A stretch of 63,495 nucleotides of DNA, the filler included, from Rhabdomonas costata (taxonomy: Eukaryota), in the NCBI GenBank assembly GCA_019059605.1. It is 24 parts of 24 records of this genome, joined end to end, with 100 filler letters (N's around TTAATTAATTAA, not from the genome) between each part and the next. Parts side by side here need not be neighbours in the genome. Positions count along the whole stretch, not along the records: positions 37,119 to 39,667 come from JAHMHO010002915.1; 23 more parts are not named here. One strand, given 5' to 3'. The position numbers were made by a program, and so were the translations under genes. Below are positions 29,642 through 53,005 of this stretch, one piece after another. Below the pieces are notes generated by a model. That model saw nothing but the letters and a program-made list of their open reading frames with translations. It was not told where the DNA came from and did no database searches. The stretch's first letter is position 1. Each line of letters begins with the position of its first letter.

Positions 29642-29693
<52 letters not shown>

Positions 29694-31364
29694 AGACCAC
29701 GACCACCACCACCACAAAAGACATTATAGAAAACAAGAGGCCCTCACTTGGCAACCGGAGAAGCGGGAGACGCAAACCAAAACCAAGATCATTTCAAGGT
29801 CATAGCAAAATGAGGAGCAGTCACTCCTTTCTGTCCACCGAAGGAAGGTGAGCAGCGAGGATAATTTCTGCATTTTTGGAAGGATCCTGCACATGTGGAC
29901 AAGAGATATGCAAACAAGAGCAATCCCGCAACAAGAGATGAACCAGATGTGTAGAAAAGGGGTGGGAAGTACCCTTCACGCTGAGGTGAATTTAAGGGGA
30001 GGGCGAGGGTGAATGATGACAAGAGAGAATGAAAGCTTAGCGCAGACATCTTTATGCTGAAAGGGGGCGTACTTCAACCCAAATCCGTTCTCGACCGAAG
30101 AAAAACGCACACACACAGACGCTTTCAGACATACACAGACACACGCAGGCCAACCCGCCAGGTCGACGATGAACAAGGTGCCTCGAGTGGCCTCGCGGGA
30201 GATGTGGTTGCGGCCGTGCAGGGTGACCCGGACGACGCAGTGGGAGCGGGAGGAGTGCTCGTTCAGGTTGGAGACCCCCACAGCCCGCGCCGTCATCCCT
30301 TGCCGCAGCACAGGCACCACGTCGGCCATCCCGCGCTCCACCCGGGCCTCCGTGAGCTCGGGCACGGTGACCTGCGACCAAACAGACGAGGGTTTTCTGC
30401 GCAAAATACACTCAGTTGAAGTCAACGGACCTCGCTGAGGTAAGAATGACAAATCCTGTTTTATGCAAATTCAAGCAACCAGAACGCGAAACAAGACAGG
30501 ACTGCCATATGCCCAGCAGACGAAAGAGGATTCCACAGGACCCACTGAACTCTTGTTTCCTCGGAGAAATGCATAGGGCCAGCAGGTCAGTAGGTTGAGG
30601 CGGGGACCGCCTGAAGGCCAGTCTGCTCTGCATCGCAGTGTCAGAGCACGGCTCGATCTGTATAATGATGGCGGTTCTCAGGACTGGTTTCGCGCGCCCT
30701 TGTTGCCTGCAAGTCGCATTCCTGTTCCTTATCCAGGATTCGGCCTAATATCAAAGCTAACTCAGTTGCACATCTTGATCGACGAGAACTTCACGCGACC
30801 AATGACGGGCAGCAGGTTCTACCGTGTTTGAATGACGGATAACGTGCTAGTAAGTAATTATCCTGTTGACCCTGTTGACGGATCCTGTTGATCATGTTGA
30901 CGGATCCATGATTATTCTAATAATTAGTAATGAGCAACCACCATTTCTCAACCTTGCCGACCCCAAAACTCCCCGCTACAGTTCGCTTTAGTTTTTCAAC
31001 AGATGCGGGAGGGGGGGGCAGATTGGAGGTCGAGAGGAAAGGGCTCGGAATGGATAAGAATGTGCCCTCCCCCCTTTGCGGCCCACAGTACTGCAGCGGT
31101 GAGCCACACCTCTCCGCTAGGGCTCTGCCGCAGCTCTAGCTTGTGCGACCGCACCCCACCGCCCTCCCCGCCGGGAGATGTGGGCCGCAGCAGGTCGTAC
31201 ACGGCGTCGTTGTAGATCTCCATCAGGGCCAGACTGAGGGCGTACTCTGCGGTGCCCTGGGCCTGGTGGGCCTGGGTGCGCGCCCACAGGGCATGCAGCA
31301 GGCTGAAGATCACCCCGGGCTCCTCCTCCGTGCCCAACAGGGTGTGGGTCTTCCCACTGCCCGT
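29363..31364 (-). CDS. Kinesin motor domain, probably kinesin-14/C-terminal type; exons 31364-31110, 30371-30155, 29613-29363
   Basis: P-loop (Q)[42 protein letters not shown] and [18 protein letters not shown]. Splices are phase-consistent; the last exon ends AAG|GC. Confidence 0.95.
29641..29714. repeat. (CCACGA)n microsatellite in a kinesin intron
   Basis: About 10 tandem hexamers followed by CCA units. This explains the spurious poly-T, poly-PR and poly-WS ORFs. Confidence 0.95.
30860..30910. repeat. Short degenerate tandem repeat (CCTGTTGA[CGGAT]) in a kinesin intron
   Basis: atcctgttgaccctgttgacggatcctgttgatcatgttgacggatcc. Confidence 0.7.
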
Positions 31365-36801: not shown

Positions 36802-37118
36802 CTGCAAACCGTACATGCAACGCCAACTTACCGACCCCGGGCCAAAGCGCCCCACAGCCCCCCACCTCTCAGATTCCTAGTCAATAAAACGCCCTTGCTG
36901 ATGCTGTTTCTCGGGGCGGGGAAAATGTCGAGGCCAGCGGTATGGCAGCGGACGGGATTCATGTGATGGCAGCAGTATTACTTGTAATCGCTGCCATCAC
37001 ATGAATCCCCACCACCCCNNNNNNNNNNNNNNNNNNNNNNNNNNNNNNNNNNNNNNNNNNNNTTAATTAATTAANNNNNNNNNNNNNNNNNNNNNNNNNN
37101 NNNNNNNNNNNNNNNNNN

Positions 37119-39659
37119 GGTTCGCCCTGAAGCGGCCGGAGGCACATCAACTCCAAGGGGCTTCAAAGTCCGCCCCCAGGGGTGGCGCCCGAACCGACGC
37201 CCAACCAGCGAGGCCAGCGAGTCTCCTGCCAGCAAAAAAAAAGAGTCATTAATAGGCGCGGACACGCAGATGCGAATAGGGGCTGAATTCCGGTTGCTAG
37301 AAAAAAATATACTCAAAGAGAGCATAGATTGATTTTGACTTAATGGCAAGGAGAAGGGCATTGAAGGGGAGGAAAACACGTGTGGTGTGATGAAGATTGT
37401 CACCAAGCATGACAGCCGACCGCATCAGCCGCACAAACTTCAACAGGGTGTCTACCCGTGAGTGTTGAGCGCATCTGGTGTGAGCAGATGCGCTCACACC
37501 AGATTGCAATGCATCTCCTCCCAAAAGAAACACTTTCCTCTTTCCTTCACCAGACGACACCTCATCGCTGCATTCACGCATTGGCAAAAAAAAAAAGGAA
37601 CGGAGAGAATGAAACGCCGCAGTAAGGGACACAGTTCCACGAACGCAGCAGGACACTTAACGCACCGATTCCCAGCACAATGATCCCCGCAAAAGGGCTC
37701 AGGCCACGCGTAGGGCCCTCCACCACGGCCCAGGGCCCGGCTGTCCACCAAGGGCCGCACATAGGCCTCAGCCCACGGCCACCCTGGGACCACCCTCAGG
37801 CACCGGGTCAGCTCCACCACGGCAAGCAGGCACAGCGCCACCATCATTGCCAGAGAGGTGTAGCCCTCCCCGAGAAGCAGCCCAGGGATGAACAGCCCCA
37901 CAGACAGAAAGTGGAGGGGAGCACCTTGTTGGGGGGAAGGGATTGGGCTGCAGGCCCAGTGAGAGTCCTAAGTATACTCTATAGTGGGCAATTTTTCCTT
38001 ATAAAACATGCCCTCCGCATTTGACAGTATGATGGTTGTTTGTACATCTCCGCAAAAAGCAGAGAACTGTTGAGGTGGCATTATGACATAATTTGGTTCC
38101 GGTGTAGCGAATCGTCTTCTTCATGCAACAGTATCCCAAGCGGCAGCGCTAAGACCCTGCGAAGAACTTAAGACCTCGGCCCAAAGCATCCAGGACACTC
38201 ATCAAGAGTATTCTGGAACCCTGCGTTGCCCTCTCCACTGATACCGAGCACCCCACCACTACCACCACCACCAGCACCACTCCACAAGAGCCACCACAAC
38301 GGCATTTGTAAAATCTAGCGCTCATGGGAGAAAATTTTTTTGGACCAAAGAAAGTGGCTTGCTGTCGAAGAGCTGCAACCAGCACTTTAGCACCAAGTCT
38401 GAGGAATCGAGCACCTTCCTCGAGCACCACCCCTTCCCCCAAACAAAGAAGTATATGCGGAATAGCTTCCGGAGGGAAAGCGCGGAGGCCCCGCTCCGGC
38501 TCAGCAGGGGCACCGCGGGGACGCTGCAAAGAAGAAGGCCGAGCCAGTATGGGGCCAGCAAAAATCCCGGGTGGTTCACAAAGCCAACCCGAAGGAGATA
38601 TCGCACCGCAGAGGAATCCACGGGGGAGACCGCGGCGTTCAACAGGGGAAGGACCACGCCAACTCCAAGACACGCGAGGATCCCGTGGAGGAGCAAGGTT
38701 CGGCCCAAAGGGCTCAGCCCAGTTAGCGCGTGCACTGCGCAGACAGCCATCACGCAGTAGCTGGCCGTCGATAAAATAAGAATCTAAAAAACACAGCAAT
38801 GGACAAAAACTAACACAGTGTATTCACAGCCCACCTTAGCGCACTCCTCTTCAAGATGTTCGCTCGTGCAGCCTATGAGTTCCCCGAGTGGCTGGAATTC
38901 AGAGGAATTCTCGCTTTGCAATGAAGTCATTCCAGCAATCGTCACCTTGCACCTTGCACAAATCATGAGTATTAATGAAACTTGCAATGTCGTGAGATAG
39001 AGCACATACTGAATATCTTCTTCATAAGGATTGGGTTCAAGCAGAAACAAAAGACAGACCTTGCAATCATAAAAGGCAAAAACAAAAGCTGAAAAGGGCT
39101 GAAGGCACTTTCAAAGACCCTTCAGGCTGCACGGGGAGGGAGGGGGGTCGAAAACCCGAACACTTTCCCAGACACCTGCTCCAACCTCCGAAAAATCCCG
39201 GTCCCTCTGGATGGGCACCCCAGCACTGACAGCATAGCAACAACGATCATAACTTCTGAGCCCGAAAAGTGGCTCGCAATATAAGCCCTGTAAAACAGAC
39301 CAAAACTCAAACAAACCTCAGTCAGAGGAGAAAACGCAGAAAACGCAATGAGAACGCACACAATGAAAACCACAAAAACAACAAAAGCCACTGCCTCTGT
39401 GCATTTCTCTCACACAGTAAAACACAGGCCACCCATGTGAAGAAACAGGCAATCGTACAACGGAGTATTGAGCGACGGCAAACCTGAAGCGGTGGCGGAC
39501 AAATACCGCCACCACGGACACCAAAGCAGGGGACAGTCCCGATAAGCCAGTCTCTTGGTAGGCCAAGGCAGCCCATAGCGCACCTACCGCAAGCCCGGCG
39601 GCACTCGACACACTCGTCACCGCGTAGACTGCAACGCTCGCAGCAGCCACGGCAGCCAT
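37119..39659 (-). CDS. DOLK: Dolichol kinase-like (Sec59/CTP_transf_1) gene, 3'-truncated, with one non-canonical intron and an apparent internal deletion/frameshift
   Basis: Multi-TM protein with FSGSEVMIV, LRKLFH-FLSVGLFIPG, VELTR, PLVDSR, PFAGIIVLGIG-DSLASLVGRRFGRHPW. Exons ~39659-39484, 39288-39176, 38783-38459, 37912-37666, 37225-37119. Confidence 0.85.
37913..38458 (-). other. Nonconventional (non-AG) intron with base-paired ends, 546 nt
   Basis: Joining ...CTATTCC|ACTTTCTG... restores RKLFHFL. The intron reads GCATAT...CCCCTCC. TTGTTTGGGGGAAGGG near the 5' end is complementary (15/16) to CCCTTCCCCCCAACAA near the 3' end. Confidence 0.8.
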
Positions 39660-44834: not shown

Positions 44835-46830
44835 CTGCAGCAATAATCAGACAGCGGAAGTAAGAGGGAGCGAAGGGAGCAGGTGCCATAACTGGACAGT
44901 GCACAGTGGAGCACATATGTGATTTGATGCGCGGTGGTTCATTGAGGCAGACAAAAAACNNNNNNNNNNNNNNNNNNNNNNNNNNNNNNNNNNNNNNNNN
45001 NNNTTAATTAATTAANNNNNNNNNNNNNNNNNNNNNNNNNNNNNNNNNNNNNNNNNNNNTGGGGAGGGGTGGGGTGGGGAATGCTGCGGTGGTGACGAGA
45101 GAGGTGAGCTGTGCGCTGGGACGGCAGGAGGGCGCCTGACACAGCGTTGGTGGGAGAGCGTTGAAACCCTTTTACACGTTGCAAACGGTGTCAGCGTGGT
45201 CGTCTTCGATTTGCGCCGGAGGTTCGCAGCCTCACGTCTGGCGTACTCGAGGTGAGCGCAGCGGGATCCCCAAGGTATGGTGGGGTGTGCTGCAAATCTA
45301 AACCTATGATATCATAACGGAAAAGTGAAAATACGTTCTCTCCTCCGGTTCCCGTTGCTATTTTGCGAAAACATTGCACACACAACCACAACCACACATC
45401 CCCACGCGTACCCCAGGAGGACTGTTGCCCATGGGTTTCGCAACAATACGGAAGAGGGGCAAAAGGCTTAAGAACAGGACAAGCCCTGAAGAAGAATGAC
45501 TCATCCTACACCCAGGCACACACAGAAAGAGGGAATTGCGCTCACAAACACAAAGCAGCCACCTAGCCTCCCCTCGCACTCTCCCCCGATTTACAATGTG
45601 ATGAAACCCTCATCACTCAAAAATCCTCTGTGGCAGGCTTCTCTTCATACGTCTTCAGGGACCCGTTTATTTGGATTTCTAGAGCCTAGTAGTCCCGCGC
45701 TTTTATTGCAGCAACAAAGCGCGAGACTTCCCCAATGCCCTGAAACATAAGCACGTCTTAAAGCTGCACCGCTGCTGTAACAAACGCTGGACACAGTCCT
45801 TTAGTGCACGAATAAATTCCTTTGAACCGGGATTCACACAGTCAAAAAGGGAGCCCCGAGATAGATAAGAGCAACGTGTCAGCTGTCCAGAGAGGACAGC
45901 CCTGACAGCCCTCTGGTAACTCTTCGCCTGCCTACAGCCCTGTGCCAGTAGAAAGCCCTCAGTGCGCACGGAGCTTACCACGCAAGTTCGTTCCATATCG
46001 GGAGCCTCTCTGCCTCGGCAGCATCATGAATTCAGAAGAGCCTCTTGTATCAGTACTGGTAGAATGCCCCGATACGCTGGCCGGAAAATCACACTATACC
46101 CCTGCGACCCCCTTCCTCTTGAACCCCAAGAAAGCGGTGGAGAGAAACGGTCGAACCTTCGATGTCCTGCACGAGGCTGACCTTCAACAGAGAAAAACGC
46201 TCAGAGGCGCACATGGATACAGCTCGAACTAAAAACCCACCCCAAACGTCCAAACGCTGCAAAGCGCTGCGCAGGAGAGAGAGGACACAAATCACCAAAC
46301 CCACTCGTGCATACAGTAAGCTCTAACTCTTACAACAGAAAAAGATAAAGAGAGGGAAACACAATCGAATTGTGGATAAGGAGGGTCTGGGGGCCCAAGT
46401 GCAATGCCTCGAAAAACCCCACAGCCCTGAGGTTTGGGAGAAAGATTCATAAGGAGATTAACCCCCCGGTGGCTTCAGCTCAGATCCCCTGGCGGAGGAG
46501 GAGCCAACACAGAACAAGGGGCGGGCAAAGCCTGAAAAAGAAAACACACGGTACAGATCGGATCTAACGGTAAATGGCGGGCGTGAAAGCCCCAACCCAC
46601 CACCCACCCAGCGTGTGCTTCGACAAGCCATGGCGAGAAGGGAGACGCAGGCTCCCCCGAACATCGTCACAGTGCACCACAAAAAGCTGAAGCACCAAAA
46701 CAAAGCGCAGATCATAGAAGCGCAAACAAAAAGGGAAACACAAGCAGAACACACACCACACACATGCACATGCATACCACCGGTGCGGAGCGAGCCCCAC
46801 ACTATGGAGCCGCACTTCAAAGGGGAACTC

Positions 46831-49848: not shown

Positions 49849-52560
49849 CCCACTCACTTCCTCCCAGTCCCTAAGTCACGCGACTGTTACCGGTGCACAT
49901 TTCTCCTTCCAGCTTTTAACTTTGATCCTTCCCACCTTCCTGCCCCGCTGCCCACTGGTCCCGCAATGCTGTGACGTTTTTCCATGTGCTCGAAATGGTG
50001 GTGAATCACTGACGTGGTGCATCAGCAAGCGTTGTGCCGAAGTCGTTGTTGGTTTGGTGAGGGCGTTTCTTGCTTCTGCGATAATTCGGTTCTTAGCAAC
50101 GGTTTGCAGAGAGGTTTCTTCGTGGTTTCCTGTGATAGGTTAATCCACCTTTCAATGTGCGAGCGATTTGTCACGTGATGGTCTTTTTCGTTTGCTCCCG
50201 TACTTTGTGTAACTGACAGTGTTTTGTCACGTGAATAATTTCACTCGAATTGCTCACNNNNNNNNNNNNNNNNNNNNNNNNNNNNNNNNNNNNNNNNNNN
50301 NTTAATTAATTAANNNNNNNNNNNNNNNNNNNNNNNNNNNNNNNNNNNNNNNNNNNNTTTGTTTGGTATTCATATTGGAAGAGTTGACTGCTTGTGCTTC
50401 GAGGAGGTTGGCTCGCCACCCTCCCCAATAGCACAAGCAGTCAACTCTTCCAATATGAATGCCAAATAATCCTCCTCGCAAACATCTTAATTTTGATTCC
50501 ATATTTTTTCTTTATATGGTTTTGTTTTGCTGAAAAGTCGCTCCAATTCCTGATAAGTTTTTTACTTTCACGTTTTCTTCTCTGGGCGAAATGCAGCTCC
50601 TTCGGCGGATTGTTCGTGCGCGGCAAGTGGTATGTCGCAAACAATGCTTTTTTGCAGTACTGTGTGGTTATTAAATTATTTTCACGCACTGAGTGCTTTT
50701 TCACAAGACCTTTCATGTTCGCTGGGCCCAGGAGTACAACCGCGTTGCTAGATGGTTTGGGTTCCCACTACCGCTGCACTTAGCGCACCCCCCCCCCCCG
50801 CAGCAGTCGAGTCGCCACGGCGGCTCGTTCTGCAATCGAAGGTAAAAAGACCTTAAAGGGGTTACCGGGAGAGTCAAGTGTTCGCTGGGATCCCAATCGA
50901 ATATTGGCAGAGAGTTAGGGAGCGATGCACGTGTTCCCTGGGATCCCAATCGAATATTTGCAGGGATTCACAGGTCCGACGACGGGTTGGGTCGCGCGAA
51001 CTTCCACGCTTCCCAACACAGCAAGCAGTGGATTTTTTTTAAAGTGGTTGCAGATCAGTCCTCCTCAGTGTCCCACTTTCGAGGAGAAGAATAAGGGACC
51101 CCAAACTTTTTCATTGGAACCTACCATGACGACATGGCAAGGGTTGATCGTGGGATTGTAAGTTCAGGGTGTTTTTGATGTGCTTCGATTAATGCCGGAT
51201 AATTTTCGCGTGGAGGTGTGAGTTTTGATTTTGCCATTTCCCGGAGAACAGGGTCGATTCACGTTCCATTTTCTCGACTCTGCTCTGAGGAAAAGTTTGC
51301 CCGTGTCGGTTTTCTTTTTTTCCTTTGTCCTCCAAAAAAGCTCTCCTGTTACAGTTTCTGTCCCTGCTGTGATTACAACCTCACTCGTGAAATCGATGAC
51401 GTTGTGACAACCCACATCTCTGAGCACAGGGGTTTTTCTGGTTCTCGGTCGCACTTGTAGCACAGGAAACGCGCAAGGATTTCTCGCCTGTGATTTTTCA
51501 GGATTCTCTAAATAGTCGTGGAAGTTTGGTGAAGGTGGTGAAGTGAAGTTTAGCAGATTTGTTTAAACAGGTGTCCAAATCTCCATGTTGTACATAAAAA
51601 CAAGGAAGGTCCACACCAGCATGGCTGCTGGGCGGTACACGTATGGTGGTCGTTTTCGTTCGATAAAGAGCTTCGCGCGTCAGCTCCCCGACGCTCGCAT
51701 TTGAGTCATACGAATCCCTTTCCGAAAAGGTAGTGTTGAATTGAGGTTACTTGGTATTAGCTGTGGACGAAGCTGAATGGATTGCTTGGTGGTCAGGAGA
51801 GGACAGTTTCTAGCCTTAGTAATCGTATTTGTTATTGAGTGTTTTGATGATCATCTGAGGGATTTAACTGCATTGTTTAAACAAGTCAGTGATCAAGGCC
51901 GCCTCTTTATCAGAATTGCTGCTGATCATTGGTCAATAATTAGCACATCGTTTTGTAATTCCTTGCTGCCCAACAACCACTGAAAATGCTGAACAATTGA
52001 AACAGCAGTGCGCTTAAATATATTCTCCCTTTGCACTCCAAGGGGGAGGCTCCAGTTATTTACCCTTCGTGTGTGACTCGGCAGGAGGTAATTAAAAATA
52101 ATAGTTTAGTCATTGTGCGAACTTTTGTCTCGTTCGTTGGTGCTTGGTGGTCCGGTTGTTGCCAGTCATCGCTTACCGCTCCCAGCACCTGATTGATGTG
52201 TGCTACTCCCCTTTGAACAAGCTAACTCTACGAGATTTATTTCTGAACTCGCCAGGGACCCCCCCTCCCCTGCTGCCGGTATTGCCGCTGCTTCAGCAAG
52301 CAGTGCTCCCCATTATTGCATGCATTTGTCTTTCGGCGAAGTGTTGCCTTTTTTTTTTCGTCCAAACTGTGAACATTCCTGTGAACCGTTAGGGGAAGGG
52401 GGCAACTCTGCAGTCCTCCATGTTTGTCTCAGGTTCGTCGCTTTGCTACTGCCGCGGCAGAGTCGAGGACTCCCTACGTCAGGTCGGACTGCGCGTTTAG
52501 CGCGTTTTTTGTTTCTCTGTTGTGTTTGCATGTGACAAAATTTTCGCGGTTTCGATTCAG

Positions 52561-52718: not shown

Positions 52719-53005
52719 GTTTGCTTTTTTCCTGGGTATCTCTCGAATGTCTTTCAGTTTTTTGGAGAGTCATGATGAACGGTAATGACTCTGTTCTCTT
52801 TGCCAGCGTCTACGGCTGACCTCGAGGCGAAGAAAACAGAGTCATTACCGTTCATCATGACTCTCCAAAAAACTGAAAGACATTCGAGAGATACCCACAC
52901 AAAAANNNNNNNNNNNNNNNNNNNNNNNNNNNNNNNNNNNNNNNNNNNNTTAATTAATTAANNNNNNNNNNNNNNNNNNNNNNNNNNNNNNNNNNNNNNN
53001 NNNNN

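Follow-up and report, generated by a model that had tools for sequence, protein, structure and literature searches.

The stretch of Rhabdomonas costata DNA analysed here (63,495 nt, referred to below as the window) consists of 24 contigs of 2549-2560 nt, which are chained by runs of N around TTAATTAATTAA. Because the contigs are joined by such linkers, genes on either side of a linker are not neighbours in the genome. The contig at 37119-39667 carries a probable dolichol kinase gene on the minus strand, and the coding sequence of this gene is interrupted by a 546 nt segment whose borders are not those of an ordinary intron. An earlier note, made from the sequence of this DNA, had described the segment as a nonconventional intron with paired ends that lies among spliceosomal introns in a dolichol kinase gene of a euglenid. 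The features of the locus are given in Table 1; all items at this locus, in the table and in the text, are on the minus strand.

A transcript-derived protein in EukProt (P0001; label RCo035806, 264 aa) matches the exons of the contig with 100% identity. From this match it follows that the locus gives a transcript from which introns 1 and 2 are removed, and the identity also places the host organism among the euglenids. In exon C the identity extends up to ...LLSRS. A search of 1.84 billion representative proteins (50% identity, all lengths) with the downstream open reading frame (ORF) returned five matches, three of which (P0002, P0005 and P0006) align from the histidine of RKLFH onward; the other two, P0003 and P0004, are unrelated repeat proteins and were set aside. 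P0002 is a dolichol kinase-like protein of Sycon ciliatum and is placed in dolichol kinase clusters of the Atlas (0.96). A search with this protein gave 72 proteins, nearly all of which are dolichol kinases by name or by precomputed PF28421. The family name used here rests on the source names and precomputed PF28421 for these 72 proteins and on the Atlas clusters for P0002. In a copy of Pfam that lacks the DOLK model there was no match for the four exon ORFs, P0001, P0002 or P0005, and the single match for P0006, to CrtO, was below threshold. Sequence search of the PDB with P0002 returned chance matches only (E ~0.8).

The features looked for as marks of a dolichol kinase were RKx[F/Y]H with a PG helix after it, a DxRD loop, a THIYLL-type helix and a GxGDxxAS...W block. 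The locus has RKLFH (once the segment is removed), the PG spacing, VDSR and GIGDSLAS...W, but lacks the THIYLL-type helix. A profile made from 73 homologues matches exon C at profile positions 226-326 (38750-38460) and exon D at positions 327-388 (37913-37728; 34.9 bits), and the exon D region is also matched by P0002, P0005 and P0006 in tblastn searches (E ~1e-11). Together with the match to P0001, the profile supports the identification of the host as a euglenid dolichol kinase gene, as far as this can be judged from sequence.

Three GT-AG introns are found in the gene. The borders of introns 1 and 2 are fixed by P0001, and those of intron 4 were taken from the profile match: its removal joins ...FAGIIVLGI-G-DSLASLVG, which matches the profile block YAGVLSLGVGDAVAS. 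The donors of the three introns are CAG|GTTTGC, CAG|GTGTCT and TCG|GTGCGT, and at the 3' side there are T-rich tracts followed by CAG or TAG. Within intron 4, at 37470-37510, there are overlapping short perfect inverted repeats of ~11 bp (CTGGTGTGAGC / GCTCACACCAG).

Table 1. Features of the putative dolichol kinase locus (positions are those of the window; bp, nt and energies as stated)
Feature	Position	Strand	Remarks
GT-AG intron 1	39288..39483	-	196 nt; borders from P0001; end duplex -14.0 kcal/mol
GT-AG intron 2	38784..39175	-	392 nt; borders from P0001; end duplex -7.6 kcal/mol
Upstream exon (exon C)	38459..38783	-	ends ...SLRKLF, then base 1 of the His codon
TCC direct repeat	exonic 38459..38461, intronic 37913..37915	-	last 3 bases of the exon and of the putative intron
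Candidate nonconventional intron	37913..38458	-	546 nt; slides 0-3 nt toward higher coordinates, at most to 37916-38461
5' arm, G-rich	38417..38448	-	intron +11 to ~+42; holds the 16-mer 38431-38446
3' arm, C-rich	37921..37954	-	intron -9 to ~-42; holds the 16-mer 37926-37941
Downstream exon (exon D)	37737..37912	-	(H)FLSVGLFIPGLLL...PLVDSR
Gene defect	37712..37736	-	+1 frame change; no counterpart of profile positions 389-415
GT-AG intron 4	37226..37665	-	440 nt; inferred from profile match; end duplex -14.2 kcal/mol

The segment between exons C and D has different borders. Exon C ends ...CGG AAG CTA TTC C at 38459, the segment then begins with GCATAT and ends with CCCTCC, and exon D continues from 37912 as AC TTT CTG. 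The TCC repeat means that the borders can be placed in four ways, all of which give the same mRNA. At slides of 0-3 nt the 5' dinucleotides are GC, CG, CC and TC and the 3' dinucleotides are CC, TC, CT and CC. There is no 3' AG at any of the four placements and 5' GC is found at slide 0 only, so that GT/C-AG borders are absent. At slide 0 the junctions are C|G and C|A, that is pyrimidine|purine, and this is the only placement with a purine both at the intron's 5' end (G) and at the start of the downstream exon (A). The borders, the junction bases and the flanking repeat are all as the earlier note had read them. A U12-type AT-AC intron was ruled out, as no placement starts with AT. Searching the contig against Rfam (E up to 1) gave no matches, so the segment is not a known small nucleolar RNA host, ribozyme or group I/II intron. 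The GC content of the segment is 0.50 compared with 0.54-0.66 in the exons. Mid-segment, at 38230-38290, there is an imperfect GGT/GGTGGT microsatellite-like run, with weak matches to 29690-29715 in another contig.

The homologues indicate precisely what has to be removed. RKx[F/Y]H is contiguous in all 74 of them (RKxFH in 66 and RKxYH in eight), and the motif is followed by a hydrophobic stretch and then PG, with the same spacing as at the locus. Removal of 38458-37913 joins RKLF to HFLSV, and the F|H boundary of the profile (positions 326|327) coincides exactly with this junction. We used the profile to score seven joins. One was this join, and the others were six in-frame GT/GC-AG combinations out of a list of 18. 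The join 38458-37913 scored 72.4 bits as one domain. The GC-AG join 38458-37925, which uses an upstream AAG and adds RAPL, scored 61.2 bits, the GC-AG join 38466-37948 scored 53.4 bits, and the four GT-AG joins scored 48.5-50.0 bits, each as two domains. In all 18 in-frame combinations with GT/GC-AG borders, RKxFH is broken up. Homology therefore demands the removal of exactly these 546 nt, which bears out the claim that only this removal restores the motif.

The ends of the segment can pair strongly. In the 16-mers 38446-38431 and 37941-37926, 15 of the 16 positions are complementary, the count given in the earlier note; one of 1000 control segments did as well. A duplex of the first 40 nt with the last 40 nt has an energy of -40.1 kcal/mol and contains a stem of ~30 bp; this energy was reached by none of 3000 random 546 nt segments of the window and by one of 3000 shuffles of both ends. 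By contrast, the end duplexes of the three GT-AG introns of the gene lie between -7.6 and -14.2 kcal/mol. Both the minimum free energy (MFE) and the centroid fold of the segment show the end stem, as does a cofold to which 25 nt of flanking exon were added at either end. Folding thus agrees with the earlier suggestion that the pairing would bring the splice sites together. The fold of the whole segment is mildly unusual (z = -1.94; two of 100 shuffles fold as well). As the end duplex is exceptional but the whole fold only mildly so, the signal resides in the ends.

The stem consists of GCA at +1..+3 paired with UGC at -11..-9, a 7 nt bulge, and then +11..+42 paired with -12..-42. The outermost pair is +1/-9, so that 8 nt at the 3' end stay unpaired, and the total overhang is therefore 8 nt, the same as the canonical 3+5. 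When the borders are moved to slide 3, the GCA/UGC mini-helix falls at +4..+6/-8..-6, which is the canonical register.

Euglenid nonconventional introns are described as having variable non-GT-AG borders that are often pyrimidine|purine, repeats resembling target-site duplications, and paired ends (PMC11282704, PMC3935182). According to the accounts in PMC11282704, PMC3935182, PMC4770533 and PMC6221363, the most conserved pairs are at +4..+6/-8..-6 and are usually CAG/CTG, and these introns are excised after the spliceosomal introns by a mechanism given as unknown. Circular products have been reported in a 2021 circular-RNA paper, as cited in PMC11282704 and PMC12621601. A purine is reported to be preferred at the 5' end of nonconventional introns (PMC4770533) and to begin the downstream exon in Euglena nonconventional splicing (PMC12501133), and 84.4% of E. 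agilis introns are reported to have slidable borders (PMC12501133). In R. costata itself, introns are described as mostly GT-AG, with seven putative nonconventional ones (PMC8219788).

Taken together, the exact join, the end stem and its overhang of 8 nt, the features shared with this class and the euglenid host favour the reading that the segment is a nonconventional intron of the dolichol kinase gene, albeit an atypical one without CAG/CTG. We hold this reading with modest confidence. The segment would then be a candidate addition to the known intron class, from a lineage in which introns of this kind are to be expected, though in a gene copy whose integrity is doubtful.

A number of results weigh against this reading, and several concern the signals themselves. 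CAG/CTG at +4..+6/-8..-6 is absent at all four placements, as the earlier note had remarked of the terminal pair. At slides 0-3, positions +4..+6 read TAT, ATA, CAT and GCA, positions -8..-6 read TCC, CTC, GCT and TGC, and positions -9..-7 read CTC, GCT, TGC and GTG. The Euglena code 5'-N3CDG-/-CH'GN5-6|R is reported to have been defined genetically (Nomura et al., 2025; PMC12501133), and none of the four placements matches it (N3-CDG...CH'G-N5-6|R). The same paper reports that in Euglena the donor spacer is strictly 3 nt and that single changes to CAG or CTG abolish splicing (PMC12501133). By its count, 61.2% of the nonconventional introns of E. agilis carry the code (PMC12501133), and because the figure is no higher than this, the mismatch here is compatible with membership of the class. 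The geometry raises a further difficulty. Slide 3, which gives the canonical register, has T at both purine-preferred positions, and slide 0, which has the purines, has a register of 0/8. Apart from the 3 bp outer helix, the stem begins 11-12 nt in from the ends, behind the 7 nt bulge, and is off the canonical +4..+6/-8..-6. Additionally, the AAG that follows the C-rich 3' arm is a possible spliceosomal 3' site.

Transcript coverage and copy number also count on this side. P0001, the sole matching transcript-derived protein, breaks off at ...LLSRS, and 11 codons separate its end from the junction. Exon D gave no matches among proteins of 86-275 aa, and among 50%-identity representatives of all lengths its best match was 40% identical and none exceeded 44%. 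The transposon-like sister copies envisaged in the earlier note were not found: blastn and an inverted-repeat scan detected none in the other 23 contigs (~58 kb).

The remaining points against a nonconventional intron lie downstream of the segment, where the gene is defective. Exon D stays in one frame through ...PLVDSR (37737), ~180 nt past the segment. The next recognisable block, ...LSPFAGIIVLGIG, continues over intron 37665-37226 to DSLASLVGRRFGRHPWG and is in the +1 frame from 37711. The conserved transmembrane THIYLL-type helix (positions 389-415), which is present in all homologues checked (in four of them with variant spellings), has no match in any frame of the contig. The distance from H to GxGD is ~82 residues here, by arithmetic from the coordinates, as against 97-116 in the 63 homologues with both of these motifs. 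Taking out 19 nt at 37736-37718 (GC...AG) would mend the frame but leave the helix absent. As assembled, the locus cannot encode the C-terminal half of a canonical dolichol kinase, and the defect may reflect a pseudogene copy, a real deletion or an artefact. The frameshift and the missing helix, which the earlier note had not remarked, weaken the premise that this copy of the gene must give a working mRNA, and they make it possible that the segment was inserted as DNA into a decaying copy. Further downstream, past GDSLASLVGRRFGRHPWGRT, the KTxEG block of the family reads LKPLGV (37150-37170), and the contig ends 30 nt further on; this may be due to divergence, to a further intron or to decay.

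An insertion at the level of DNA, either a miniature inverted-repeat transposable element (MITE)-like element or filler from double-strand-break repair, could have entered such a decaying copy and be kept in the RNA. The motif would then appear to be restored merely because the insertion and a 3 nt duplication split a coding sequence that had once been continuous. The TCC on both flanks and the long imperfect inverted repeats near the ends are consistent with this, as are the frameshift, the loss of a helix that all checked homologues have, and the LKPLGV in place of KTxEG. The end of P0001 before the segment, and the two protein searches in which no protein over exon D was found, point the same way. 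However, the inverted repeats lie inward of the ends (arms at +11/-12, with only a 3 bp helix at +1/-9), the arms themselves have no flanking duplication, and there is no second copy in the 23 other contigs. A microhomology of 3 nt is calculated to occur by chance in ~5% of junctions. The exons upstream of the defect and exon D are intact open frames with a good match to the family, and the locus is transcribed and spliced. Moreover, insertions of this kind are the proposed origin of euglenid nonconventional introns (PMC3935182), so such an origin and a present function as an intron would be compatible. We regard a DNA insertion retained in the RNA as unlikely, but as an explanation to be kept in view.

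It is doubtful that the segment belongs to a conventional spliceosomal intron with other sites. The likeliest choices would be GC at 38458 with AAG at 37925, which leaves RAPL between F and H, or GT at 38430 or 38444 with AG at 37948 or 37968, which leave 19-23 residues. None of these combinations shifts the frame or brings in a stop, and a C-rich tract precedes AAG 37925, such tracts being described as typical of E. gracilis conventional introns (PMC11170887). End stems, too, are known in some spliceosomal introns (PMC3935182). Each of these combinations, however, breaks a motif that is contiguous in 74/74 homologues, at a cost of 11-24 bits. The donor TTCC|GCATAT is unlike the donors of the gene, and the C-rich tract with AAG is unlike the T-rich tract with CAG/TAG of its other introns (n=3).

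An assembly or amplification artefact, such that the segment or the downstream deletion is not present in the real genome, is very improbable. In its favour, the window is made up of 24 chained contigs of ~2.5 kb each, near-perfect hairpin repeats end some of them (52733-52897, 50362-50466) and the defect at 37712-37736 is hard to square with an expressed gene. Against it, the segment differs from foldback chimeras in that its arms are imperfect and have 489 nt between them, and the exon sequence is continuous on both sides with an exact match to P0001 upstream.

Elsewhere in the window, near-perfect foldback repeats lie at or near contig ends. Those named above have 72 nt arms with a 21 nt loop and 37 nt arms with a 31 nt loop, respectively, and a third, at 36935-37005, was found by eye. 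Their appearance is that of real hairpins or of palindromic chimeras from DNA amplification. The only other non-trivial spaced inverted repeat in the window is at 45484-45660 (16 nt, 88% complementary, 145 nt spacer); it was dropped as a second candidate as there is no evident coding frame around it.

If the segment is a nonconventional intron, as we favour, the spliceosome would first remove the three neighbouring GT-AG introns. The G-rich 5' arm would pair with the C-rich 3' arm in the ~30 bp stem, and both junctions would be set at the foot of this helix, with 0-3 nt between the outermost pair and the 5' junction and 8-5 nt between that pair and the 3' junction, depending on the placement that is actually cut. 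An activity that is not guided by U1 would then cut and join TTC-C to AC-TTT, restoring RKLFH, and the intron would probably come away in circular form, which is what has been reported for Euglena. In this course of events we infer that the segment is excised from RNA, when this happens, that an enzyme does it and that the product is circular.

Nonconventional introns are the majority class in the E. agilis genome (71.8%), and their known signals come almost wholly from phototrophic Euglena. If the segment were confirmed as an intron on RNA, it would provide a case from a distant heterotrophic euglenid, without CAG/CTG and with a very strong helix and an overhang of 8 nt. This would help to separate sequence from geometry as the cue for the machinery.

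The segment resembles the nonconventional introns of E. gracilis, E. agilis and other euglenids (Milanowski et al., 2014, 2016; Nomura et al., 2025) in lacking GT-AG and in its pyrimidine|purine junctions. It also has borders made slidable by a short repeat and a stable end stem, it neighbours GT-AG introns in one gene, and its overhang of 8 nt equals 3+5. In contrast with those introns, it has GCA/UGC rather than CAG/CTG, and the register is right only at slide 3, where pyrimidines are at the purine positions. Its main helix is also far longer (~30 bp, -40 kcal/mol) and lies behind a 7 nt bulge.

The earlier note had further suggested an 'intermediate' intron. Milanowski et al. (2014) are cited for an operational I/N label, which covers introns with 5' GT/C only and a stable end structure (PMC3935182), and with GC at the 5' end, a non-AG 3' end and a stable end structure the segment is like these introns at slide 0. 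To this extent the suggestion fits. The 2016 study, however, attributes 5' GT/C ends to the purine preference, and not to spliceosomal kinship or to a distinct or transitional type (PMC4770533). Given that conclusion, the I/N label adds nothing on mechanism.

The segment is also like MITE-like elements with terminal inverted repeats, and like introner-type introns, in having inverted repeats, a 3 nt flanking repeat, no coding capacity and a length of <1 kb. It differs from such elements in that its repeats are subterminal (+11/-12), the TCC flanks the whole segment and it is single copy in 58 kb.

The noncanonical introns of hemistasiid diplonemids (Namystynia karyoxenos and Artemidia motanka) are described as having inverted ends, one G-rich and one C-rich, that pair strongly, as the segment does, and a MITE-like origin has been suggested for them (PMC12621601). 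No U1 match is proposed in that account, and we count this and the suggested origin as likeness. The likeness is one of description. Pairing in those introns is given as lying within the 9 terminal nt (PMC12621601) whereas the main arms here start from +11/-12, and the hemistasiid diplonemids are a different class of Euglenozoa from the host of the segment. A long shot is that the machinery may read helix geometry and not CAG/CUG, cutting at a fixed 3 nt + 5 nt from the foot of a stable helix. A structure-measuring cut-and-ligate mechanism of this kind might be ancestral across Euglenozoa, with CAG/CTG in Euglena as a later specialisation. The idea draws on the finding of GCA/UGC in the canonical register, together with long G/C-rich arms like those of the hemistasiid diplonemids, in an early-branching osmotrophic euglenid.

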